Part shown: piece by piece, positions 1-22,714 of the stretch | Position numbering within the stretch: the stretch's first letter is position 1 | Layout: every line of letters starts with the position of its first letter | Source of the DNA: a virus | Taxonomy: Duplodnaviria; Caudoviricetes | DNA: 30,642 nucleotides | Direction: 5' to 3' (one strand) | Virus record (IMG/VR): IMGVR_UViG_3300025128_000209 | Span: 1-30,642 of that record | Translations under genes and position numbers: made by a program | Notes under the pieces: generated by a model | Seen by the model: the letters and a program-made list of their open reading frames with translations, nothing else | What the model was told of the DNA's origin: nothing | Databases searched by the model: none

Positions 1-3000
1 ATAAACTCCAGTATTATATCTAAAATCATTTGGACTTACTTTAAATATCTTAGCCCCTTCTGTTAATTCTAATTTACCAGTTCCGATTTCATAGTTACCT
101 ACAGGAAAATCTCCTATTTGTTTTCCAGAAGTGTTATAAACTAGCATATTAATTCCCTTTTCCTTTGTTACAGGGTCTACATATTCCTCCATCATCTTAG
201 ATAATTCTGGGGTAGTATCATGTAAAGCATATTTAAGAACCTTAGTACCATCTTTACTTTTAACAAGTAAAATTGACTTTTCTTGCCCTGAATCTGGGAC
301 TCCTTTATCAGCTCTAGCTACTTTTCCTGTATTCCTAGTTGTTACTATACCTCCATCAAATGGTTGCTTAAGGTCTAAATTTGATGCATTTAATATATTA
401 TCTGGACCTTCTGGAGCTTTTACAAATGCAGCTTTTAAATTACCATTAGCATCTAAGAAGTCAGGATTATTAACTCCATGATTCCTAGGGTCTTTCCAGA
501 ATTCTGCATCACCTCTCCAACCATTAGACATCCATAAAGGATTTCTTTTATTATCTTCTACAGAATTTTTAATAAAACCTTCTTGTCCTGCTATTTTATC
601 TATAGGTCTTCCATCATTTAAATCTTCTATATATTTTATAGTAGATTTAGTCATTTTATCATTAGTCTTTTTATCTATCCCATACATATCTTTAGCAAAT
701 TGATAATATCCTTTAGGTAAAGAAGGCATTTTAACTGTATCTAATTTAGGGTGATACTTAACAAAGGTGATTTTATCTTTATCGCCTTCACCTCCCCATA
801 TTTGGAAACCTTTTTTATCCATTTCCTTTACTAATGTCTCAATATGAAGTTTAGTCATTGTTTTAGCAGTTTCAACGGCATTTGAATACTTGTCGAATTT
901 AGGAGCTATATCTTTAGTTATAACTTGTTCTAACCTAGACAAGTCAACATCTCTAATATTTCCATTTCTATCTTTATATGTTATATCTGTAAAATTAACT
1001 ACTATAGGGTCTTTACCAGGAGTAACTTCTTTACTTCTTCTTTCATTAACAAAGTCTTGTAATTCATTAGCATGACTTCTATATCCTTTTGCAAAATAAA
1101 GTAAATTTTTATTATCTAAAGTGCCCTTATCGATTTGGTCTAATATCCATTGCCTTCTCTGAGGCTCTACATTTTGATATGCTGTACCTTCTAGCCATGC
1201 TCTATAATTTGCAATTGAAGTAGGAATGTCTTTGGCTTTTATTGTTCCTTGATACCCTTTAGATGACCATGGATTACCAAAATTATTAATTTCATTAACT
1301 AAAGGAATATTATCTCCCTTATTAGGACGCATTACATAAACACCCTCACCTCTTCTTGCGGCCGCTTTAGTATTAGAAGTTCCTTCTACAATCTTTACTT
1401 CAGATTCTACAGGGACAAAAGTACCTTTTTTAGCCTTCAAATAAGCTTCTTCTATTGCTTTTATAGGACCTTGTTCTTGTTTGAGTGCTCCAGATTTACT
1501 AAATGGAGATTCTGGAGTAATAATATCAACCTCTCCTTCATAATAAGAACCAGTAAATAAAGGATAGGATTGGTTTTGCATTACTAACCATTGCCTTAAA
1601 TCCCTCTTTAATTGATTTGGCAATGTCTTTTTATCTTCAGCTTTATCAATTCCTAAGTTTTTATTTAATTGCTCTTCAATTGCTTCTATCCATTCCCTAG
1701 AACGGGTTGTACTTCCTTTGACTAAAAAAGGACCTTTTGCATCCCCAGAAACAACTATTTCTCCAGCTTTTTTTGCAACTTTACTTATATTGTCAAATCT
1801 CTCTAAAGTTTCAGGATAATCTTTTTCAAGAAACTTATCTAGGTTTCTTTCAAATATAGATGATAATCTGAAGTCCATTTTAGATTGAGCGACAGTAGCA
1901 TCATCATATTCTATATTTTCAACAGTATCCATTTCTTCAGTTTTCTCTGTTTTTGCTAGCATTTCATCCTTAAAGCCCTTAGAAGCATGTTTTTTGAAGA
2001 TATTCTCTATTTGACCTACTTCTTTAGTGTTAGGGTCAATAGTGCCGAAAAAGGCCGTTCTACGAGCTAATTCAGGCACCTCACTAGTTTGGTCAAATTT
2101 ATTTGTCTTAAAATTGTATTTATGCCAACCCCCTATCTTACTATCAAAAGCATATATTTCTTTTACATTTGGATTGTCAATAGCCATTTGAGTTTGGATT
2201 CTAGATAAACCCTTTGTTTCTGTCACATGTCCATTTAAAGGGTCTATAATTATAACCTTTTCTGCATAATCAATTCTAGCTGCATCTCTTCTTAATGAAT
2301 TTAAATAGTTTTCGGAATACTTACTTACATCTATTTTATTACCATATCCTGTTTCTTCAACTCTATTATTAAGAACTTCAACTGCATCTGCTATTTTTCT
2401 ATTTCCTAATACCATAGTCTCTGGAAATAGAATAATCTGGTCTGTAGAAGAGGTTTTTGTATTTTCAATTTGCCCTTTAAATAGAGGTTGAACTTCAGTT
2501 AATCCTGCTTTATGAGATTCTTGAGAGACAACCGCTTCTATTCCTTTTTGACTAGAAGTTAAAATAAAAGTATCTCTTCTACTTTTTTCTATTTTTCCCT
2601 CTGGAGTTGAGGGTTTAACTTTTATTTTTTTAATAGGAGGTCTATCTTTAGCTTTTGCTTTATTTATAACATCGTAAATATTTTTTTCAGCATGTAATGC
2701 TCCTTCTGGGGTTCCACTTTTTTTAGCAGCACCAATTCTTTGCATTATAAAATATAAGTGCCGACCAAATCGTTCACCTTTTTTTCCTAAGCTAGTATCA
2801 TTTAATATTTCCTTCCAAGATAATCCTTGATTAGAAAGTTTTTTAATATGATTTATAAGTCTTACTACGTTATTATCATACCATTTGTGATATATTTCTC
2901 TGTTATCAGCTAAGCCTTCATTAAATTGTAATCTTTCTTTTTCACTATAACCTTGTTCTTTAGCTTCCTTTTTAGTCATATCTTTATGAAGATACGTAAT

Positions 3001-4911
3001 TCTATTATAAGTAAGTGCCACAACACCCAAATAATCTTCTTCAGTTTTACCTGGATTTTTAGCAAGCCATTCATCTCTTGTCTCTTCATAAGCCTTATCT
3101 ATATCTAAAACCGTTTTTTTCTTTGTCTTAATATGTTCAACTTCAAATGTATTATCTTGTTTTTCAGGCCTCTGTTTTACTATATTATCATAAAATTCTA
3201 TTATTTCTTTATATTTTTTATCATATTCCTTTTTAGAGATTCCCCCTGCTTTATACTGGGCAAATAATCTAGCTCTATCACGCCCTTTGCTTTTCTCTAT
3301 TACATCAGCGGCATCTTCTTTTTTACCTCTTCTCATAAGAAATTCATATAATTTTGGAATATCTGTAAGAATACTTCTTTCATAATCTGATAGTAATTGT
3401 TTGTCCTTTAATTTGGCAGCTTGTTCTGGAGATAATTCTCTTAAAGCTTCTGAACGAATTTTATCAAGTCGTTTTCCATGTTTCATTATCAAATCAAGTT
3501 GCTGAGGAGTATATCTATCTCTAATTCTTTGTGCAAGACTTTCTGCAATAGGGTCACTAATACGCGGTACTAATTGACTATATGTATGCATTAGACTGTT
3601 CGCAGTCCCAGGAACACCAGCGTCCTCTAATTCTTTAATCATATCAACTACTTCTTTGTCAAGTTCTCCTGGGAGCTCTTCTTGATATTTTTTTTCTAAA
3701 ATCTCTTTCTTTTCTTTAATTGTAAGTTCTTTTACACCTAATTCTTCTTTTAGGTACTCTATACCATCTTTTTCACCTTCGGGTTTCTTAGGTTTTTTAC
3801 CTATTTTATCACCTGGTTTTAATCCAAGGCGTTCAGCTAATTCATATCCTGGCATACCTGCTTGATGAGGTCTTTGTAAAACATGTTTTGCAGCCATTTC
3901 TCTTAATTCTACTCTAACTTCTTGAGGGATATCTGGCCAACGTGTAAACATTTCAGGGTCAAGCGTTCTTTCAAACTGAGCATCTGGATTTTCTCTAGCT
4001 TCTTTTATACCTCTTGTTAGCTCTTTAGCTGCTCTTTTTGTAGTCCAAGGTTTTTCTTTACCACCAAAATAAGCTCCCATTAAATATTCATATATTAGCT
4101 CAGGAGTTGTAGCCCCCCTTATAGAAGCAGGTAGCCCCATAAGCAAAGAACCTGATAAAGTTCTAGCAAATTTCTCTGCCTTTTCAGATTCTACTGAAAA
4201 TTTATAAGGTCTTTGTCCTTTAACATTCTTACCTATTAGATTTCCTATAGATGTGAAGGCACCACCATAGAAAGCTCCACTACCAAAGCTACGCATCATT
4301 TCATCTACGCCGCCCTGCCAACTAGAAATACCACTAGCAGCACCTAATTTAAAAGCACCTGAAGCTACATCCCTTAAAGCTCCACCTTTACTAGGATGAA
4401 GAAGATACTTACTAAAAGTATCGAAAGCATCAGTTCTTTTTAAATAAGAAGATTTTAAAGCCTTTGTTGCAAGTTTTGCTGCTCTTGGTTGTAAGATATC
4501 TTCAGCTATTTTTAACGGAATACCTCTAGCACCTTTTAACATATGAGATGCAGCTTGAAGAGAATTTATTTTACCAATCTTACCTAACCAACCTAATGGG
4601 CCTGATAATATACCAGGAGCAAAGCCAATTAAATGTCCTAAACTTCTAGCTACAGCTTCCCATTCATTATCAGGATGCTTTTTCCCGATGTCAAGTGTTG
4701 TAAACCCTTGAATAAATCCAACGCCAGCTTGCGTTATAGCATCTGCAATACTGAAATCTCCTTCGTAGAAAGGTATATTATGATAGTGTGCGTGTTGTCT
4801 TAAAGCGTTAATTGAATCCCCGCCAAAACCTCTGGGATTCTTGTTGTATCGATTTATAAGCTCTCTTGTTTGCTTATAGCTAAGGTTTGGCGACCATTGT
4901 TGTTCAGCCAT
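1..4911 (-). CDS. Giant multidomain virion/ejected protein (3'-partial, at least 1637 aa); SLOG-like and DUF4326-like domains, probable start of a two-barrel virion RNA polymerase
   Basis: Not in the ORF track because it has no stop in the window. Translated by hand from ATG at 4911 (MAEQQWSPNLSYKQTRELINRY...), preceded by AGGGG; no in-frame stop down to base 1 (...FKVSPNDFRYNTGVY). Gly/Ala-rich hydrophobic N-terminal part; SLOG-like aa ~781-974; DUF4326-like aa ~1190-1290; DG...K...SxK motifs aa ~1519-1597. The ORF is secure; the function is an inference. Confidence 0.85.
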   Translation of the reverse strand, partial: MAEQQWSPNLSYKQTRELINRYNKNPRGFGGDSINALRQHAHYHNIPFYEGDFSIADAITQAGVGFIQGFTTLDIGKKHPDNEWEAVARSLGHLIGFAPGILSGPLGWLGKIGKINSLQAASHMLKGARGIPLKIAEDILQPRAAKLATKALKSSYLKRTDAFDTFSKYLLHPSKGGALRDVASGAFKLGAASGISSWQGGVDEMMRSFGSGAFYGGAFTSIGNLIGKNVKGQRPYKFSVESEKAEKFARTLSGSLLMGLPASIRGATTPELIYEYLMGAYFGGKEKPWTTKRAAKELTRGIKEARENPDAQFERTLDPEMFTRWPDIPQEVRVELREMAAKHVLQRPHQAGMPGYELAERLGLKPGDKIGKKPKKPEGEKDGIEYLKEELGVKELTIKEKKEILEKKYQEELPGELDKEVVDMIKELEDAGVPGTANSLMHTYSQLVPRISDPIAESLAQRIRDRYTPQQLDLIMKHGKRLDKIRSEALRELSPEQAAKLKDKQLLSDYERSILTDIPKLYEFLMRRGKKEDAADVIEKSKGRDRARLFAQYKAGGISKKEYDKKYKEIIEFYDNIVKQRPEKQDNTFEVEHIKTKKKTVLDIDKAYEETRDEWLAKNPGKTEEDYLGVVALTYNRITYLHKDMTKKEAKEQGYSEKERLQFNEGLADNREIYHKWYDNNVVRLINHIKKLSNQGLSWKEILNDTSLGKKGERFGRHLYFIMQRIGAAKKSGTPEGALHAEKNIYDVINKAKAKDRPPIKKIKVKPSTPEGKIEKSRRDTFILTSSQKGIEAVVSQESHKAGLTEVQPLFKGQIENTKTSSTDQIILFPETMVLGNRKIADAVEVLNNRVEETGYGNKIDVSKYSENYLNSLRRDAARIDYAEKVIIIDPLNGHVTETKGLSRIQTQMAIDNPNVKEIYAFDSKIGGWHKYNFKTNKFDQTSEVPELARRTAFFGTIDPNTKEVGQIENIFKKHASKGFKDEMLAKTEKTEEMDTVENIEYDDATVAQSKMDFRLSSIFERNLDKFLEKDYPETLERFDNISKVAKKAGEIVVSGDAKGPFLVKGSTTRSREWIEAIEEQLNKNLGIDKAEDKKTLPNQLKRDLRQWLVMQNQSYPLFTGSYYEGEVDIITPESPFSKSGALKQEQGPIKAIEEAYLKAKKGTFVPVESEVKIVEGTSNTKAAARRGEGVYVMRPNKGDNIPLVNEINNFGNPWSSKGYQGTIKAKDIPTSIANYRAWLEGTAYQNVEPQRRQWILDQIDKGTLDNKNLLYFAKGYRSHANELQDFVNERRSKEVTPGKDPIVVNFTDITYKDRNGNIRDVDLSRLEQVITKDIAPKFDKYSNAVETAKTMTKLHIETLVKEMDKKGFQIWGGEGDKDKITFVKYHPKLDTVKMPSLPKGYYQFAKDMYGIDKKTNDKMTKSTIKYIEDLNDGRPIDKIAGQEGFIKNSVEDNKRNPLWMSNGWRGDAEFWKDPRNHGVNNPDFLDANGNLKAAFVKAPEGPDNILNASNLDLKQPFDGGIVTTRNTGKVARADKGVPDSGQEKSILLVKSKDGTKVLKYALHDTTPELSKMMEEYVDPVTKEKGINMLVYNTSGKQIGDFPVGNYEIGTGKLELTEGAKIFKVSPNDFRYNTGVY

Positions 4912-15511: not shown

Positions 15512-15596
15512 CTACATATATCCAGTCTATATCCTTAGATGATACCCAGTAATCTTCTGGAAGTATTATTTGTTTCCGTCTAGTAACTCTCCCCAT
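15504..15596 (-). CDS. Small bridging ORF, 30 aa (MGRVTRRKQIILPEDYWVSSKDIDWIYVDA)
   Basis: Hand-found. GGAG lies 9 nt upstream of the ATG inside the phosphoesterase 3' end; the ORF fills the 54-nt gap and its stop overlaps the nozzle start (ATGCCTAA). Confidence 0.5.
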   Translation of the reverse strand: MGRVTRRKQIILPEDYWVSSKDIDWIYVDA

Positions 15597-16348
15597 ACTG
15601 TTGTTCTCCCGTCTATAATTTGAACTACATCAACAGTAAATCTACCGCCTTTATAGTAATCTACTATCGCAAATGCATGAGCCCACTTATGTTGTCTACC
15701 ACCTAGCCATGCGTTCTTTTCTGAACTCATGTCTTTTAAACAACCTAAAGACCAAGCTGACTTAGGACCATCCATATATGTAACACTATCTTGTTGCAGG
15801 GAATGATGATGTCCATACATTATGTTAGCACCTAGTTTTCTCAGATGATTCGCTGCGTGATATTGTCCGCCAAAATGGTGCCCATGATAAAAATAGAGCT
15901 TTCCTATTTTAAGATACTTTCCTGGTTCATTGTACTTGTATCCTCTATCCTTGAAATTACACACCTTTTCAAAACGATAGTCTAGATAAGGATGCTCTTC
16001 TACGAATCTATCTAACCATTCATCATGATTCCCTGCACAAATATATTTCTTTTTACAGTCTACTTTGTCAAGTGATTCATCTATTATGTCAAGTAACTCA
16101 TTTACTGCTTTTACATCTTCGTCCACTTTTGGCATTATATATTCCAATGGTGGCTTTTTCTTTCTCTTCCATTGCCAATGCGACACGCTAGAGAACTCTC
16201 CTAGGTCACCTAAATCGATGTAAATATTTGGCTTGACCAGTTCTATAGCTTTGCAAACAACATTGATTGCCGCTTTATCATGCAACGGAGCGTGTTTATC
16301 GGGAGTAACAATCGCACGATTGATTACGCCATTGCTTTTCTTTTTCAT
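15566..16348 (-). CDS. Calcineurin-like metallophosphoesterase, 260 aa
   Basis: All five motifs in order: DxH (PDKH), GD (LGDLGE), GNHD/E (GNHDEW), HG (YHGH), GHxH (GHHH). Confidence 0.9.
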   Translation of the reverse strand: MKKKSNGVINRAIVTPDKHAPLHDKAAINVVCKAIELVKPNIYIDLGDLGEFSSVSHWQWKRKKKPPLEYIMPKVDEDVKAVNELLDIIDESLDKVDCKKKYICAGNHDEWLDRFVEEHPYLDYRFEKVCNFKDRGYKYNEPGKYLKIGKLYFYHGHHFGGQYHAANHLRKLGANIMYGHHHSLQQDSVTYMDGPKSAWSLGCLKDMSSEKNAWLGGRQHKWAHAFAIVDYYKGGRFTVDVVQIIDGRTTVWGELLDGNK

Positions 16349-16365: not shown

Positions 16366-16698
16366 TTAATTGAATTCATCTTTAGGACGATAACCCCAAT
16401 CACTCGGGTTAGTCCAATATGCTTTGGCGGATTGTAATTCCTTCTCTGTTTTATCGAGTGTATACTTTAAATACATATAATTACAATCATCACATTCCCA
16501 AAGCAATATGCCATCTTTATCGGCACCCATTACTTCTATTCCAGATACTTCTTCTGATAGACAATGCGGGCAAACTGGAGGAACTGTTTTGAAGATATTA
16601 TATCTAAATTCTTCATCAACAAGTTGCTTCACTAAACTTCCTTTTAGCTCACCCACTAAGTCTACAACTAGAATCATTTTGTTACTAAGCTTATCCAA
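16366..16698 (-). CDS. Zinc-ribbon protein (CPHC...CDDC), 103-110 aa
   Basis: Two CxxC pairs. The track start is TTG at 16698; an alternative ATG lies at 16677. Confidence 0.7.
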   Translation of the reverse strand: MDKLSNKMILVVDLVGELKGSLVKQLVDEEFRYNIFKTVPPVCPHCLSEEVSGIEVMGADKDGILLWECDDCNYMYLKYTLDKTEKELQSAKAYWTNPSDWGYRPKDEFN

Positions 16699-16843
16699 CT
16701 TTATTCTTTATAGCTTCGTAAACTGGTTTAAGAACCATGTCAAATATAACATCGTCTTTTTTTGAAGGCGATAATTTTATAACTTTTTCTAATACATAGA
16801 AAGCTAATAAAATCCATTGCCAATTACCTAGAATCCATTGCAT
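16691..16843 (-). CDS. Small holin-like membrane protein, 50 aa (MQWILGNWQWILLAFYVLEKVIKLSPSKKDDVIFDMVLKPVYEAIKNKVG)
   Basis: Hand-found, below the track cutoff. Strong SD AAGGAG; hydrophobic Trp-rich N-terminus and a (T/S)PxxxDD turn seen in small phage holin-like proteins. Holin function is an inference. Confidence 0.65.
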   Translation of the reverse strand: MQWILGNWQWILLAFYVLEKVIKLSPSKKDDVIFDMVLKPVYEAIKNKVG

Positions 16844-16855
16844 AGGATATTCTCC

Positions 16856-17026
16856 TTATTTGATTAGTTTTTGTAACTTCTTGAGTTTTTTCTCAAGCTT
16901 TGCGACTTTATCATCAAGTTCGTTTGGCTCCTGAACATACTTTTGAATACCATCTAAATCGAACTTTTTCATAATTCGTTTCATAACTAAATCTAATACT
17001 TTTTTTATAATAATTCCTTGTAACAT
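16856..17026 (-). CDS. Small amphipathic/coiled-coil protein, 56 aa (MLQGIIIKKVLDLVMKRIMKKFDLDGIQKYVQEPNELDDKVAKLEKKLKKLQKLIK)
   Basis: Hand-found. AAGGA upstream; fills the gap; heptad-patterned C-terminus. Confidence 0.7.
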   Translation of the reverse strand: MLQGIIIKKVLDLVMKRIMKKFDLDGIQKYVQEPNELDDKVAKLEKKLKKLQKLIK

Positions 17027-17027
17027 T

Positions 17028-17192
17028 TTATTTTTTTTCCTTTAACTGTTTTTTGCAACAATCACATGTAACAAAATCCCTAGGTGAATGAGCTATTTTT
17101 TCTAGAGCTTCCAATCGTTTCCGTAAATCAATATAATCCCGCCTACAAAGACAATTAAGAAACCCAGTAAAAATGCCCCAATCTCTCCCATC
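17028..17192 (-). other. Open, protein-like reading frame lacking an ATG (...DYIDLRKRLEALEKIAHSPRDFVTCDCCKKQLKEKK*), overlapping the 29-aa membrane ORF in the -1 frame
   Basis: 55 codons including TAA at 17030-17028, ending 1 nt before the next ATG; coiled-coil segment plus CxxC. The only candidate start is an internal TTG. Confidence 0.35.
17102..17191 (-). CDS. Single-pass membrane microprotein, 29 aa (MGEIGAFLLGFLIVFVGGIILIYGNDWKL)
   Basis: Hand-found. ATG overlaps the upstream stop (TGATG); continuous ~20-residue hydrophobic helix. Confidence 0.55.
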   Translation of the reverse strand: MGEIGAFLLGFLIVFVGGIILIYGNDWKL

Positions 17193-18246
17193 AGAATCTA
17201 TAATTTACCCCCATGCTTATATTATGTTCTTCTCGTCCATAATAACTTAATTTACTACCCTCAATAAAGACCCCAATATGCTCACTTAGGTTAGCACCAA
17301 CCAGAGTTCCAACGTCATATTGAATGCCATCTCCCTTATAAGACTTCTCTGTCAAGCCCTTTGAATAGGGATATGCATTAACCCAAATATGGGAATAAAA
17401 TCTTTCACCGCCTACATAACAGTCTATACCAATAACTACGCTTATCTCTGCTTGCCATTCTTTAACTTTGTTTTCTTCGTTATATTGCTCTATAATACCT
17501 GGCATATGGTATTCATAAAACTCTGCATCAGAATAAGCGACTGCATTAGAGTCGGGGTCTGTCCAATAATAATCAGCATCCTCATAATAATATTGCCAGA
17601 AACCATCCTCTGTGTCAGGGTCTGTTTCAACCCATAAATAATAACTATCAATTTCTCCATTGTCATTTAAATCATTTAAAGGTACTAAATAATCTTGATA
17701 TCCATACTCATATGCAAGATACCACCAAGGGTCTTCATAGTCCTCATATGCAGGATGTCCATATACTGGATGCCCCATTACATTAGTACCTAAAGATAAG
17801 AATACAGAACCCATAGTAAACTTAACTCTAGTATCTATATATGCAAGTTGTAAGTCTCTACTTTCTTTCTCTAAATACTTAACTTTAGCAATAAAGCGAT
17901 TATTTGACCATTTTAGCCAGTATTCTTGGTCTATGAAGGCATGACCCCTATTTCTTACAGAACTCGCTGAAATGAGGTATTCTAAGCCGTCTACAGCACC
18001 AAATAAAGCATTATCACTGAGTGCTGATTCTTCGCCTTTATAAAATTTCTTTGATGATTGATAAGGAAATAAGGCTATTTTCCTTATACCAATGTTATAT
18101 TTATAGTCATCTTTTAACTCTATATTACCATTTATATAGGGCGTACCCATTGAGCCAGACACATATAAAGTCGAGTTATCAAATAGCCCACCAAAAAGTA
18201 AACTAACATACGTAACCAAATAACATATAATTCTTTCATAAGCCAT
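17191..18246 (-). CDS. Predicted exported outer-membrane beta-barrel protein, 351 aa
   Basis: Signal-peptide-like N-terminus (MAYERIICYLVTYVSLLFG), alternating amphipathic strands, and C-terminal HNISMGVNYRF ending in Phe (BAM beta-signal pattern); acidic/aromatic insert with DLNDNGEID. Confidence 0.65.
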   Translation of the reverse strand: MAYERIICYLVTYVSLLFGGLFDNSTLYVSGSMGTPYINGNIELKDDYKYNIGIRKIALFPYQSSKKFYKGEESALSDNALFGAVDGLEYLISASSVRNRGHAFIDQEYWLKWSNNRFIAKVKYLEKESRDLQLAYIDTRVKFTMGSVFLSLGTNVMGHPVYGHPAYEDYEDPWWYLAYEYGYQDYLVPLNDLNDNGEIDSYYLWVETDPDTEDGFWQYYYEDADYYWTDPDSNAVAYSDAEFYEYHMPGIIEQYNEENKVKEWQAEISVVIGIDCYVGGERFYSHIWVNAYPYSKGLTEKSYKGDGIQYDVGTLVGANLSEHIGVFIEGSKLSYYGREEHNISMGVNYRF

Positions 18247-18482
18247 TACTCTGTACCGCCTTCACCGCTAGAGCCAGTGTTACCTTCCCCTCTATGACGC
18301 CCACCAGAAGTCCCTTCTTTTCCTCTATCTGAATTTACCTCTATAGCGTCATTTTTAAATGTATCTTTACGCTCTCTATCTACACTCTCAGGAGAATAAG
18401 CTTTGGTTAAAGTATGCAAATCAACAGAAACTCTCTTTTTGCCAAATCCTTCTATGTGTTGTATAAACTTGTCTAGTTCCAT
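18246..18482 (-). CDS. Hypothetical protein with Gly/charged low-complexity tail, 78 aa
   Basis: TAATG-coupled at both ends; no recognisable family. Confidence 0.65.
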   Translation of the reverse strand: MELDKFIQHIEGFGKKRVSVDLHTLTKAYSPESVDRERKDTFKNDAIEVNSDRGKEGTSGGRHRGEGNTGSSGEGGTE

Positions 18483-19165
18483 TAAAACCTCCCTGATTCC
18501 TTCTTATTTTCCAGTTTAGTAATTCTTTCTTCTAAGCTTTTAATACTACCTGATAAAATATCTAATTCATACTCTACACCTGACAAATCAACTTCAGGTA
18601 TTTTCTTATTTTTAAGTTTAGCTATCTCTATTTTAATTTCATTTAAATCAGAAGCCAAAGGAGTTAACTTAACTGCTAATTTTTTTATTTCAGTAAAGGT
18701 CTCCTTAAACTCTGTCAGCTGATATGTTATAAGCTTTAAGTCTCCAGTAGACTTAATCAAATCTACTTCACCTTTAAGATAATCATATTCTAATCTATTA
18801 GGACTATTATTAGATTTAAGTTCAGAGATAGAGCCTTGTATACTAAAATATGTAGCACACGCAGAGACTATTACTGCCCCTATTGTAGCCATAAATTTTA
18901 AGTCAAATGTAAATTTACTATCTTCACCTATTTCTGTTGGTTTTGGCACTGATATCTCCTTTTTTTCTTCTATTTTTTCTTTTGACTGTTGATTTAAAAC
19001 ATCACTTATATCATCAACTGTAACATATTTCATTTCAATTAGAACTTTTCCTAGAGGAACAGCTCTGTTGTAATTAATGGCTTCATCAGCCTGCTTACTT
19101 AAAGCCTCTTGTAACTGATTCTTATTAATAATACGATTAAATAATAATAAGTCACCTATTTTCAT
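18482..19165 (-). CDS. MshEN-like domain + single transmembrane helix + coiled-coil protein, 227 aa
   Basis: aa 2-25 KIGDLLLFNRIINKNQLQEALSKQ and aa 37-60 PLGKVLIEMKYVTVDDISDVLNQQ each fit the 24-residue MshEN pattern RLGxxLLxxGLIxxxxLxxxLxxQ; TM aa 91-109 FMATIGAVIVSACATYFSI; heptad-rich C-terminus. Confidence 0.75.
   Translation of the reverse strand: MKIGDLLLFNRIINKNQLQEALSKQADEAINYNRAVPLGKVLIEMKYVTVDDISDVLNQQSKEKIEEKKEISVPKPTEIGEDSKFTFDLKFMATIGAVIVSACATYFSIQGSISELKSNNSPNRLEYDYLKGEVDLIKSTGDLKLITYQLTEFKETFTEIKKLAVKLTPLASDLNEIKIEIAKLKNKKIPEVDLSGVEYELDILSGSIKSLEERITKLENKKESGRF
18947..18961 (-). promoter_or_regulatory. Internal in-frame ribosome-binding site and GTG start within the MshEN-like gene
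   Basis: AAGGAG-ATATCA-GTG at codon 73; would give a 155-aa MPKPTEIGEDSKF... isoform. Confidence 0.5.
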
Positions 19166-20898: not shown

Positions 20899-21375
20899 TT
20901 AAAATTGTGGATACAATGTTACAGTCGCTGTTTTACCCGACTCATTTCCATTAGTATCTAAAAATCCTATTCTTGTATATGGTGAAAATCCATGTGTATC
21001 TATATCAAATACAGTCCACCATCCATCTTCCTCATCAAACGCACTTCTATCTATAAATGCTAATTTAGCTAATTCAGTACCTGCTCCTGCTGAGGTTACA
21101 GCTGTCGTATTTTGCTGTCCTTCTACAAACCAATTAGTTCCATCAACGCTATGCTCTAGCCTAACTTCACAATCTCCAGCTAAAGCTGATGAGAGCTTTA
21201 CTAATACTGTGATATCACCTTTTATAGGTATATTAATAGGGCTAGTGTAAGCTAAAACTCCATTATTAGCTCCACCAGACCAATCTAATAATTGCACTGT
21301 TTCTGTCAAATATCCTGTATTTACAGTTACCTGACCATTGCCACCGACTGTTCTGTGTATTCTCTCCCATGCCAT
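20899..21375 (-). CDS. Putative beta-sandwich virion protein, 158 aa
   Basis: Beta-rich; VRLEHSVDGTNWF motif typical of small jelly-roll phage structural proteins. Confidence 0.55.
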   Translation of the reverse strand: MAWERIHRTVGGNGQVTVNTGYLTETVQLLDWSGGANNGVLAYTSPINIPIKGDITVLVKLSSALAGDCEVRLEHSVDGTNWFVEGQQNTTAVTSAGAGTELAKLAFIDRSAFDEEDGWWTVFDIDTHGFSPYTRIGFLDTNGNESGKTATVTLYPQF

Positions 21376-22172
21376 TATAAATTAGGTCTTCCTTCCATAT
21401 AATTAAAATTACTAGAATCCATTCCTACCATTGTGGCATGATTCCCATTCCCAGACATATCGTATATAGTTGTCCCAGTACCATTTTCATCTCCATCTCC
21501 CATTCTCCACCAACATACTAAATTATCTTTATAAGGACCTGTTAAATGATTATGCATATTTCCATCTTCATAAAAAGTCCACAAATCACCACTAATTATA
21601 TATCTATCATAAACTGCAAATTCCGCTATTTCTCCATCAAAAAATTGGTCTGCATCTCCTTCGTCATTTCTAGCTCCAAGAAAAAATGGAATAACGGACG
21701 TCCAATTTTGTCTATTTGCTTGAGTTACTCCATTCAATGTCATACTATGTACTAAACTTCCATTCCTATGCCATCTAGTGACTTGTGACGAAGCATTTGA
21801 GTCACTATTTGATGTCATACAATAGTGAGTCCATCCATTTAAAGTCCCATTACTCCATCCACTACTAACTGAAGTTAGTTCCTGGTCATCTCCATTAGCT
21901 TCAAAATCAAGTATAGATTGCCCAGATGTGCCAATTTGAATATCAGCCCTATTATTACTATCTGCTTTTACTCCAAAAATACTTTGAACAGAAGAAGGTT
22001 GTCCATCATGAGGCCTAATCCACATTGATATACTAAAACCATCATCATTTCTCATAGTATTTTGAAAAGTAGTCCCGCAATCTAAATATTCATCCGAACC
22101 ATTAAATTCTAAAGCATACTTATCCCATATACCCTTTTCCCCTACTACTGTATTTAACATAGCAGGAAACAT
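21375..22172 (-). CDS. LamG/concanavalin A-like lectin domain virion protein, about 265 aa
   Basis: ALEFNGSDEYL, FSISMWIR, WTHYCMT, FFDGEIAEFAVYDR, LVCWWRMGDG, IYDMSGNGNHATM are characteristic LamG_3 motifs. Start moved from 22220 to 22172 (TAATG coupling). Confidence 0.85.
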   Translation of the reverse strand: MFPAMLNTVVGEKGIWDKYALEFNGSDEYLDCGTTFQNTMRNDDGFSISMWIRPHDGQPSSVQSIFGVKADSNNRADIQIGTSGQSILDFEANGDDQELTSVSSGWSNGTLNGWTHYCMTSNSDSNASSQVTRWHRNGSLVHSMTLNGVTQANRQNWTSVIPFFLGARNDEGDADQFFDGEIAEFAVYDRYIISGDLWTFYEDGNMHNHLTGPYKDNLVCWWRMGDGDENGTGTTIYDMSGNGNHATMVGMDSSNFNYMEGRPNL

Positions 22173-22714
22173 TAATCTTGTATTACACCTACTTTTAAAA
22201 GTAATCCTGATGCTGTCCATGTTTTAGCACTAGCATTTTTATTAATTGCAGCTACATAAATATCTCTACTATCTGATGCTGCTTTTAAGACCATACCTAT
22301 ATTCTGTTTGTGACCTGCTTTCCAAAGCACTCCATCTAAATAATTAGTAACTCTGACTACTCCTAATATAGCATCAGGTACAGCACCATCAGTAGCTGAT
22401 ATTACAGCACCTTCTGTACCTAAAGATGAACTTGCATTAAAAAATACTAAATCTACAGGAACCCCATGGTCATCATCGTCTACTAAGACTACAGACTGTA
22501 ATATACAAGAGCCACCTTTTGTAGATACTAAATTCTCTAATTTTTCATTGTCAAATATAATTTCACCATCAGAACAAGCATTAGTAGTAGTACCTGGAGT
22601 TATCTCAATAATATCTACATTCATTTGAGTTAACTTTTTTTCAGAACCAACAACTTCAGCTCCTGTTCTTTTAGCTTGGGTTACCCCAGCTTGTTGTATA
22701 ACTAAATCACTCAT
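22172..22714 (-). CDS. Putative virion structural protein, 180 aa
   Basis: SD GGAG; beta-rich; located in the head accessory cluster. Confidence 0.55.
   Translation of the reverse strand: MSDLVIQQAGVTQAKRTGAEVVGSEKKLTQMNVDIIEITPGTTTNACSDGEIIFDNEKLENLVSTKGGSCILQSVVLVDDDDHGVPVDLVFFNASSSLGTEGAVISATDGAVPDAILGVVRVTNYLDGVLWKAGHKQNIGMVLKAASDSRDIYVAAINKNASAKTWTASGLLLKVGVIQD

Follow-up and report, generated by a model that had tools for sequence, protein, structure and literature searches.

An MshEN_N-headed phage membrane protein with a conserved internal start and a linked gene for a predicted outer-membrane barrel

Known phage dealings with the second messenger cyclic di-guanosine monophosphate (c-di-GMP) are of two sorts, interference by cyclase-binding peptides and sequestration by sponges. 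Acb2, Tad1/Tad2 and Acb4 are reportedly phage sponges for cyclic nucleotides, and the host protein NfrB, an MshEN-bearing membrane protein, is said to be needed for adsorption of phage N4. If a phage envelope protein carried a host-type receptor domain, the phage would be reading the c-di-GMP signal. Here we analysed a gene for a candidate protein of this type, 18482..19165 on the minus strand of a 30,642-nucleotide (nt) stretch of virus DNA (IMG/VR record IMGVR_UViG_3300025128_000209, positions 1 to 30,642; "the window" below). The protein carries an MshEN_N head, its gene has a conserved internal start, and it is linked to a gene for a predicted outer-membrane barrel. The best explanation we can offer, still a tentative one, is a c-di-GMP-gated trans-envelope unit that includes the barrel and acts on lysis.

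Two groups of described systems are closest. In MshE, c-di-GMP is described as held by the Gly3 amides, two hydrophobic triads (positions 2, 17 and 21 of the motif), Gln24 and a stacking Arg1, and the C-terminal subdomain of MshEN as dispensable for binding (PMC5013675). Thermus thermophilus PilF carries variants of this domain: with Lys, GSPII-B reaches a dissociation constant (KD) of 6 nM and its K167R variant is 25-fold weaker, and GSPII-C, in which Pro starts motif II and the linker is longer, binds with a KD of about 0.3-0.5 uM (PMC11731258). GSPII-C has three motifs, and the same source does not establish which two form its pocket. Among lysis proteins, a transmembrane (TM) helix with the N-terminus inside, followed by a periplasmic coiled coil, is the layout of i-spanins (PMC9636201).

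The MshEN_N head and its putative ligand pocket

All genes of the window lie on the minus strand and make up the late region of a podovirus-like phage, in the order terminase, P22-like portal, SU10-type major capsid protein, adaptor-like genes and then the MshEN-headed gene. The phage origin given in a preliminary description of this DNA is borne out by these terminase, portal and capsid genes upstream on the same strand. The start codon of the gene overlaps the stop of the upstream gene (TAATG), and its own Shine-Dalgarno (SD) sequence is weak. The features of the encoded protein are as follows.

18482..19165 (-), long isoform, 227 amino acids (aa): MshEN_N head, variable Lys/Glu linker, one TM helix and a predicted periplasmic coiled coil ending in GRF
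19091..19162 (-), MshEN motif 1, K2-Q25, KIGDLLLFNRIINKNQLQEALSKQ; I3, G4, L18, L22 and Q25 match ligand-contact positions
18986..19057 (-), MshEN motif 2, P37-Q60, PLGKVLIEMKYVTVDDISDVLNQQ; L38, G39, I53, L57 and Q60 match ligand-contact positions, and P37 replaces Arg
18839..18895 (-), single TM or signal-anchor helix, aa 91-109 (Kyte-Doolittle 19-mer maximum 1.81)
18485..18838 (-), helical coiled-coil region, aa 110-227, presumably located in the periplasm when part of the long isoform

The two 24-residue repeats, the 11-aa linker between them (A26-V36), the TM helix and the helical C-terminal half all lie where the preliminary description had placed them. A relaxed motif pattern was found in just two copies in the six frames of the window, both in this open reading frame (ORF); among 200,000 shuffles of the protein, one copy appeared in 19 and two copies in none. 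In the AlphaFold2 model the hydrophobic segment is followed by helices 124-139, 141-185 and 195-220, with a confidence score (pLDDT) of 50-70 for most blocks. The coiled coil is expected in the periplasm because a folded head without a signal peptide would remain in the cytoplasm. The proposed inner-membrane architecture is supported by profile, structure and conservation.

Homologues were compared in two lineages: clade A, to which the query belongs (74 non-identical loci), and clade B, reached through a representative search (61 loci). Conservation was counted over 52 main-clade loci of clade A, and a degenerate subclade of 17 loci was counted apart. The NCBIfam model NF053729 matched aa 2-60 of the query over all of its 53 positions (1-53) at 40.5 bits, above the curated cut-off of 38 (E 1.7e-10). 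It was passed by 7/7 tested main-clade proteins having the 11-aa linker and a PLG/PIG motif, and by 6/6 tested clade-B heads; P0122 and three degenerate-subclade proteins missed the cut-off. With a profile built from 67 homologues, the top PDB match was Thermus PilF (6F8L, E 1.2e-4), with Geobacter PilB below it. Weak matches to the NfrB-type models NF008411 and NF012033 also lay over the head.

The modeled head consists of four helices (3-9, 15-31, 38-44 and 50-69; pLDDT 79-88). The best structural match among 48,161 chains was c-di-GMP-bound MshE (5HTL, Z 9.1, root-mean-square deviation 2.0 A over 58 residues), followed by PilF GSPII-B (8PDK, Z 8.4). A Z of 9.1 is modest for a helical bundle and agrees with the sequence evidence. 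Foldseek placed the same entries on top at a weaker level (E 0.034; none at E < 0.001). The superposition of the predicted four-helix bundle on MshE answers in the affirmative the comparison with the Vibrio cholerae MshE N-domain suggested earlier. The Pfam MshEN profile, suggested alongside it, gave the opposite outcome: PF05157 matched neither the protein nor any family member (67/67 without a match). In the scanned bacterial matches PF05157 spans the C-terminal alpha/beta subdomain and not the motifs, so we did not count this null against MshEN_N. After aa 60 the phage protein continues with linker, TM helix and coiled coil, with neither the C-terminal alpha/beta subdomain nor an ATPase domain. 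We concluded that the head is MshEN_N by homology and predicted fold. The earlier assignment to an MshEN-like module stands on profile, structure and conservation; a full MshEN/GSPII domain it is not, and the protein is not a member of the MshE/PilB/GspE ATPases, though its head belongs to MshEN_N.

The contact residues of the pocket are strongly conserved in the main clade. Gly3 is present in 52/52 loci in both motifs, Leu21 likewise, and Gln24 in 52/52 and 50/52; taken together, Gly3, the hydrophobic positions 2, 17 and 21, and Gln24 of both motifs are kept in 50-52 of the 52 loci. The head is under purifying selection (median pairwise ratio of nonsynonymous to synonymous rates, dN/dS, 0.13; 488 pairs from 50 loci). 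The Ile found at motif-2 position 17 would be a mild change, as Ile at position 17 or 21 is reported to lower affinity merely 2.4-fold (PMC12002112). In PilF GSPII-A, according to the same work, binding is blocked by a helical extension at the N-terminus; the phage protein begins one residue before the motif and is therefore without it.

Three caveats had been attached to the motif in the preliminary description. The Lys at motif-1 position 1 largely ceases to be one, being the high-affinity variant of PilF GSPII-B (PMC11731258). The missing Gly at position 10 is in part a peculiarity of this strain: the query has R11 and K46, and Gly stands there in motif 1 of 50/52 and motif 2 of 29/52 main-clade loci (118/120 homologues for the first). 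Position 10 and the linker are structural and not ligand-contact positions, and linkers longer than five residues also occur in the aligned Geobacter PilB and PilF. The long linker and Pro37 both have counterparts in the c-di-GMP-binding PilF GSPII-C, and of these two Pro37 is still a real doubt.

Several observations speak against a working pocket. Pro37 occupies the place where motif 2 normally has the stacking Arg and is outside the R/K/L consensus, which K2 fits; Ser at motif-2 position 1 abolished binding in a rebuilt GSPII-A (PMC12002112). MshE has a basic patch upstream of the motif, and the phage protein does not. In the 17-locus subclade, motif 1 no longer has L17, L21 and Q24, and motif 2 no longer has Q24; the subclade scores about 32 bits on NF053729, below the cut-off, yet its dN/dS is 0.05; clade B is mostly without the motif-2 Gln and has Thr or Ser at position 1. 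A head that is degenerate yet constrained, together with clade B, indicates that the head can persist without a canonical pocket. These two groups are also the grounds for supposing that the head is an MshEN-derived bundle kept for oligomerisation or protein docking, reading no c-di-GMP (or binding another ligand), and GSPII-A and XpsE are reported to retain the fold without binding (PMC12002112, PMC5013675). In the main clade such a scaffold is unlikely: the flanks vary, yet hardly any change is seen in the contact residues, both surface Gln and both Gly3 among them, and a ligand pocket fits this better than fold constraint does. Judged by sequence and model, the main clade probably binds c-di-GMP, and clade A has the best-preserved pocket among the lineages compared. 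This preservation and an easily expressed head of 60 residues make the binding question directly and cheaply testable. As a separate observation, the degenerate-subclade head (L010:4589-5245 and 16 related loci) has a CC pair in motif 2, a possible ligand change or redox/metal site.

Internal start and two likely isoforms

A second set of initiation signals lies inside the gene, between the head and the TM helix.

18947..18961 (-), predicted internal ribosome-binding site: AAGGAG (18956-18961), 6-nt spacer and in-frame GTG of V73 (18947-18949); surrounding sequence A-rich and unstructured
18482..18949 (-), predicted short isoform, 155 aa: consists of TM helix and coiled coil and lacks the MshEN head; same form as in natural headless genes, e.g., L091:3394-3879

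Starts were analysed in 69 of the 74 clade-A loci. The analysis omitted L091 (headless), L094 (contig end) and L074, L088 and L090 (GTG-started and cut in extraction); the last three each show an in-frame Met at the internal-start site. All 69 loci have an in-frame ATG (63) or GTG (6) at 0-4 codons before a conserved TEIG-like word and ahead of the membrane segment. An SD interaction of -5 kcal/mol or stronger accompanies this codon in 63/69 loci, compared with 28/69 for the first start and 8% of in-frame codons overall. Lys/Glu-rich linkers have a high purine content, and synonymous codons were therefore resampled: 45% of loci would be expected to have such an SD against 91% observed, and among unique linkers the SD was present in 50/52 against 24.3 expected.

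The codon itself is also constrained. The internal-start column of 120 proteins contains Met in 112 and Val in 6, with two not scorable, so that Val is the sole replacement among 118; other columns rich in Met also accept Ile, Leu, Thr or Gln freely. GTG makes up 38 of the 739 Val codons elsewhere in these genes, and at the internal start it is found in three tree branches, in two of which it persists between relatives differing at ∼30% of four-fold sites. The natural headless genes begin at the same place, both L091 (with AGGAGG) and L358, L366 and L383 of the second lineage (3/65).

Three considerations weaken this case. The GTG argument loses force because Val can be reached from ATG in one step only through GTG; the loci are related, so the counts are not independent events and overstate independence; and the internal start is confined to clade A, clade B having starts with an SD at scattered places (12/59 loci scored). 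On balance, the conserved in-frame start with its SD makes a long, sensor-headed and a short, headless isoform likely, and from the sequence evidence we regard the internal start as very probably used. A likely history is that a head gene was fused to a gene for the TM helix and coiled coil and that the old start was retained under selection. With two starts, one gene would yield both a regulated subunit and an unregulated one, which is an unusual arrangement.

Stand-alone heads of 64 aa exist (P0160, P0161 and P0196); scans for their loci returned fused forms or cellular MshEN proteins instead. Such heads, and the phage sponges named above as precedents, bring up a membrane-tethered sponge that removes c-di-GMP or 3'3'-cyclic GMP-AMP (cGAMP) used as an immune or lifestyle signal. 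MshEN_N alone is reported to bind c-di-GMP with a KD of 0.35 uM and cGAMP weakly (PMC5013675). A sponge of this kind is very improbable: each chain has one site, the headed isoform has a weak start, the gene is in a late position, and a sponge would need neither the membrane anchor nor the coiled coil.

Two smaller candidates in the membrane part were rejected. Reading the invariant GRF end as a docking motif is questionable, because the GRF codons also form the SD of the next gene (GGA/GGG AGG/AGA), though the Phe there uses both codons. A VSAC lipobox-like word in the TM helix, by which the short isoform might be a lipoprotein, was set aside; its Cys is absent in 29/74 clade-A loci.

Predicted barrel partner, neighbouring genes and the second lineage

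The constant neighbour of the MshEN-headed gene lies downstream, followed by two small ORFs.

17191..18246 (-), 351-aa predicted 12-stranded outer-membrane beta-barrel with a signal-peptide-like N-terminus and C-terminal Phe
18246..18482 (-), 78-aa ORF between the two conserved genes; no relative among the clustered neighbour ORFs and no family match
16856..17026 (-), 56-aa amphipathic/coiled-coil ORF, within 7 ORFs in 40/74 clade-A loci
16691..16843 (-), 50-aa small hydrophobic ORF, holin-like by appearance only, no Pfam/PHROG match; within 7 ORFs in 38/74 clade-A loci

The barrel gene was present in 45/45 clade-A loci with at least 1.5 kb downstream (64/74 overall), and in 40 of these 64 its start is no more than 10 nt from the stop of the MshEN-headed gene. 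In the reverse direction, 66 of 73 loci found via the barrel carry the fused gene, and the other seven are truncated upstream or headless. In clade B a barrel gene is near the MshEN gene in 58/61 loci. The two genes stay together while other neighbours reshuffle, and we are confident that their products belong to the same functional module; for direct contact between them we would give an even chance. Neither protein has a PHROGs family. The C-terminal Phe is kept in 46/49 barrels, and because of this residue and the signal peptide we did not favour a reading of the barrel as a virion component. Structural matches were tied (KdgM, Tsx, EstA and OmpG, Z 11.0-11.2) and an atlas search agreed, with no specific porin family nameable.

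By strand order in the model, barrel segment 57-86 would face the periplasm or lumen, and the acidic/aromatic insert 161-263 would be extracellular. Segment 57-86 is as conserved as the strands, and the insert is conserved as strongly as the barrel (0.77 vs 0.69-0.74). Within the insert, a conserved DLNxNGEID word stands amid invariant Trp, Tyr, Asp and Glu residues; we take it to resemble a calcium-binding loop.

Clade B is myovirus-like, with contigs of up to 131 kb among its loci, and its TM region is homologous to that of clade A (hhalign 91%, E 1e-6). Its 61 loci have other neighbours: a thioredoxin-fold secreted protein (56), a lipoprotein-like gene (41), type IV pilins within 7 ORFs (16; N_methyl and PHROG pilin matches), a GTA-type holin with three TM segments within 7 ORFs (15), a Popeye-domain/cNMP-binding membrane protein (13; e.g., L132:5977-6627) and an H-NOX gene (PF07700, E 5e-44) directly upstream of the MshEN membrane gene (5; L104:4450-5001, L109, L111, L131 and L156). 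A small MscS beta-domain membrane protein (L095:2727-3152) was noted near the module in 11/61 loci. Tandem arrays of about four type IV pilin-like genes lie just downstream of the MshEN gene at L122:6814-8881, L132:7272-8408 and L147:7054-9004; an atlas search with a clade-B pilin returned viral clusters only.

The insert, if exposed, and the clade-B pilins would fit another output of the same c-di-GMP-responsive envelope unit, superinfection exclusion or surface remodelling. Here the barrel would display its acidic/aromatic domain on the infected cell, and the head would drain c-di-GMP from the host pilus ATPase, or mimic its N-domain, and so shut a pilus or glycan receptor. Precedents are the phage PilB/PilZ inhibitors Tip, Aqs1 and Zip, as described in PMC11656802. 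The gene is in a late structural position, coupled to head-tail adaptor genes, and no pilin cluster was found among clade-A neighbours. Superinfection-exclusion proteins are usually early or lysogenic. This output is accordingly a possible but rather unlikely one.

Other neighbours of the module were recorded as well. A metallophosphoesterase (phrog_221; window 15566-16348) is near it in 51/74 clade-A loci, and in several loci a different metallophosphoesterase (L074:2581-3765) takes its place, which suggests selection for such an activity beside the module. Window 21375-22714 encodes a Laminin G3 domain protein (E 4.6e-16), one of several capsid-adjacent beta-rich ORFs that vary between relatives and a probable head decoration. 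Window 1-4911 is part of a giant ORF (roughly 3,700 aa) that runs on in L321:3-6494 and probably encodes an ejected virion protein; its window part has no family match. No tRNAs were found, and promoter/terminator signals were not above chance (24 found, 27.0 expected).

The family is widespread in marine, uncultured phages. We found 1343 proteins close to the query; at least 4706 match the second-lineage profile, which may include unrelated MshEN proteins, and the membrane part of that lineage occurs in 523 viral stretches. Neither the MshEN-headed gene nor the barrel had a match among 50,697 GenBank phage records. The clade-B alignment matched 20 loci in GTDB, by the head only and in scattered phyla, so that no host or donor could be named. 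Among 110 candidates there was no long cellular relative of the head, which is weak evidence. An Acinetobacter sp. label on one atlas cluster member was not taken as the host. SD use by the phage genes and the outer-membrane barrel suggest a diderm host with SD initiation. Phage-encoded MshEN was not reported in the literature searched, most subscription papers and bioRxiv supplements lying outside it, and is not mentioned in the main text and two supplementary files of PMC5013675. New here are the conserved internal start giving two likely isoforms and the barrel linkage in two lineages, neither of which appears in the preliminary description.

Possible output and comparison with known systems

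In the proposed c-di-GMP-gated unit, the short headless isoform, made from the strong internal ribosome-binding site, would be the constitutive subunit, and the long isoform, with its weak start coupled to the upstream structural gene, would co-assemble with it via TM helix and coiled coil. The folded head would fix the topology with the N-terminus in and the C-terminus out. Binding of c-di-GMP might then alter the oligomer or its contact with the barrel, and this change might hold back or release outer-membrane disruption. The isoform ratio would set the gain, much as the lambda S107/S105 dual start is described to set lysis time (PMC9636201).

The lysis output, which we put forward tentatively, draws on layout and position. 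A lysozyme is found within 3 ORFs in 28/74 clade-A loci, the clade-B holin (15/61 loci) adds to this lysis context, the H-NOX and Popeye/cNMP genes of clade B (5 and 13 loci) provide a signalling context, and the single TM helix and coiled coil have the i-spanin layout, given the topology expected of a folded head without a signal peptide. Other results disfavour it. Among five genome records, a PF00959 lysozyme turned up in one, roughly 12 kb away from the module, and none was found in the longer record of this phage. Where an o-spanin would be a lipoprotein, the constant neighbour here is a predicted barrel, and there is no conserved lipoprotein among the clade-A neighbour clusters; by the lipoprotein test the protein is not a two-component spanin. 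Lysis alone does not readily account for the conserved insert of the barrel. GTDB genomes yielded no relative of the full protein. An ORF of 233 aa upstream of the terminase genes (window 30414-30642/L320:4626-5327) has a C-terminal half that is lysozyme/transglycosylase-like by eye, without a PHROG or NCBIfam match.

The gene has two in-frame starts, each with initiation signals in its sequence, and this dual-start logic, as described for lambda S105/S107 and S21 (PMC9636201), raises the question of a holin/antiholin pair. The short form would be a one-TM holin, the long form a c-di-GMP-controlled inhibitor and the barrel a separate co-inherited moron. Headless forms have weak matches to phrog_1296 (E 3.8e-4 and 7.8e-3) and the query has none; no stretch passes alone, and the matches look like coiled-coil noise. 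Other holin candidates adjoin the gene, clade B is without a second start, and the barrel linkage is near-absolute. We consider a holin/antiholin pair very unlikely.

A bolder form of the trans-envelope unit, which we think rather improbable, is a relay from an outside-cue-sensing barrel through the periplasmic coiled coil to a cytoplasmic c-di-GMP receptor made optional by the start codon in one lineage. If this were true, a new trans-envelope relay would exist in marine phages by the thousands, spread over two or more unrelated virion types, and a lytic phage would time its burst by the sessile or motile state of the host. Lysis would then be wired for the first time to a second-messenger receptor encoded by a phage, and the outer membrane would be disrupted by a route that needs no lipoprotein.

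Among known systems, the MshEN_N domain of MshE (5HTL; NF053729; PMC5013675) shares with the phage head the tandem 24-residue motifs, the four-helix bundle, both triads, both Gly3 and both Gln24. The phage protein differs in being viral, in K/P for R/R at position 1, in its 11-aa linker and in the absence of MshEN_C and ATPase; its head is fused to a TM helix and coiled coil and is likely removable via the internal start. T. thermophilus PilF, the top sequence match, has Lys at motif-1 position 1 in GSPII-B; in GSPII-C, motif 2 opens with Pro and the linker is longer. The domains of PilF control a hexameric ATPase and gain further contacts from a C-terminal subdomain, whereas the phage protein is a single head on a membrane anchor. 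NfrB and NfrB-like MshEN-glycosyltransferases are likewise membrane-associated MshEN receptors tied to phage biology; they are host-encoded and enzyme-linked, and the phage protein has no glycosyltransferase.

Lambda Rz/Rz1 also combines an inner-membrane protein bearing a periplasmic coiled coil with an adjoining outer-membrane partner (PMC9636201), but the partner here is a beta-barrel and not a lipoprotein, and no spanin profile passes. Lambda S105/S107 and phage 21 S68/S71 likewise yield two isoforms from one frame that differ at the N-terminus (PMC9636201); the isoforms here would differ by a predicted ligand-binding domain of 72 residues and not by 2-3 residues, and no holin profile passes. 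PB1-like YIP peptides are described as phage products engaging host cyclic-nucleotide signalling, with the difference that YIP binds a cyclase (PMC8085984). In the unit proposed here, a host-type receptor domain would be wired to an envelope output. The sponges Acb2, Tad1/Tad2 and Acb4 are, by contrast, reportedly small soluble proteins that soak up the signal.

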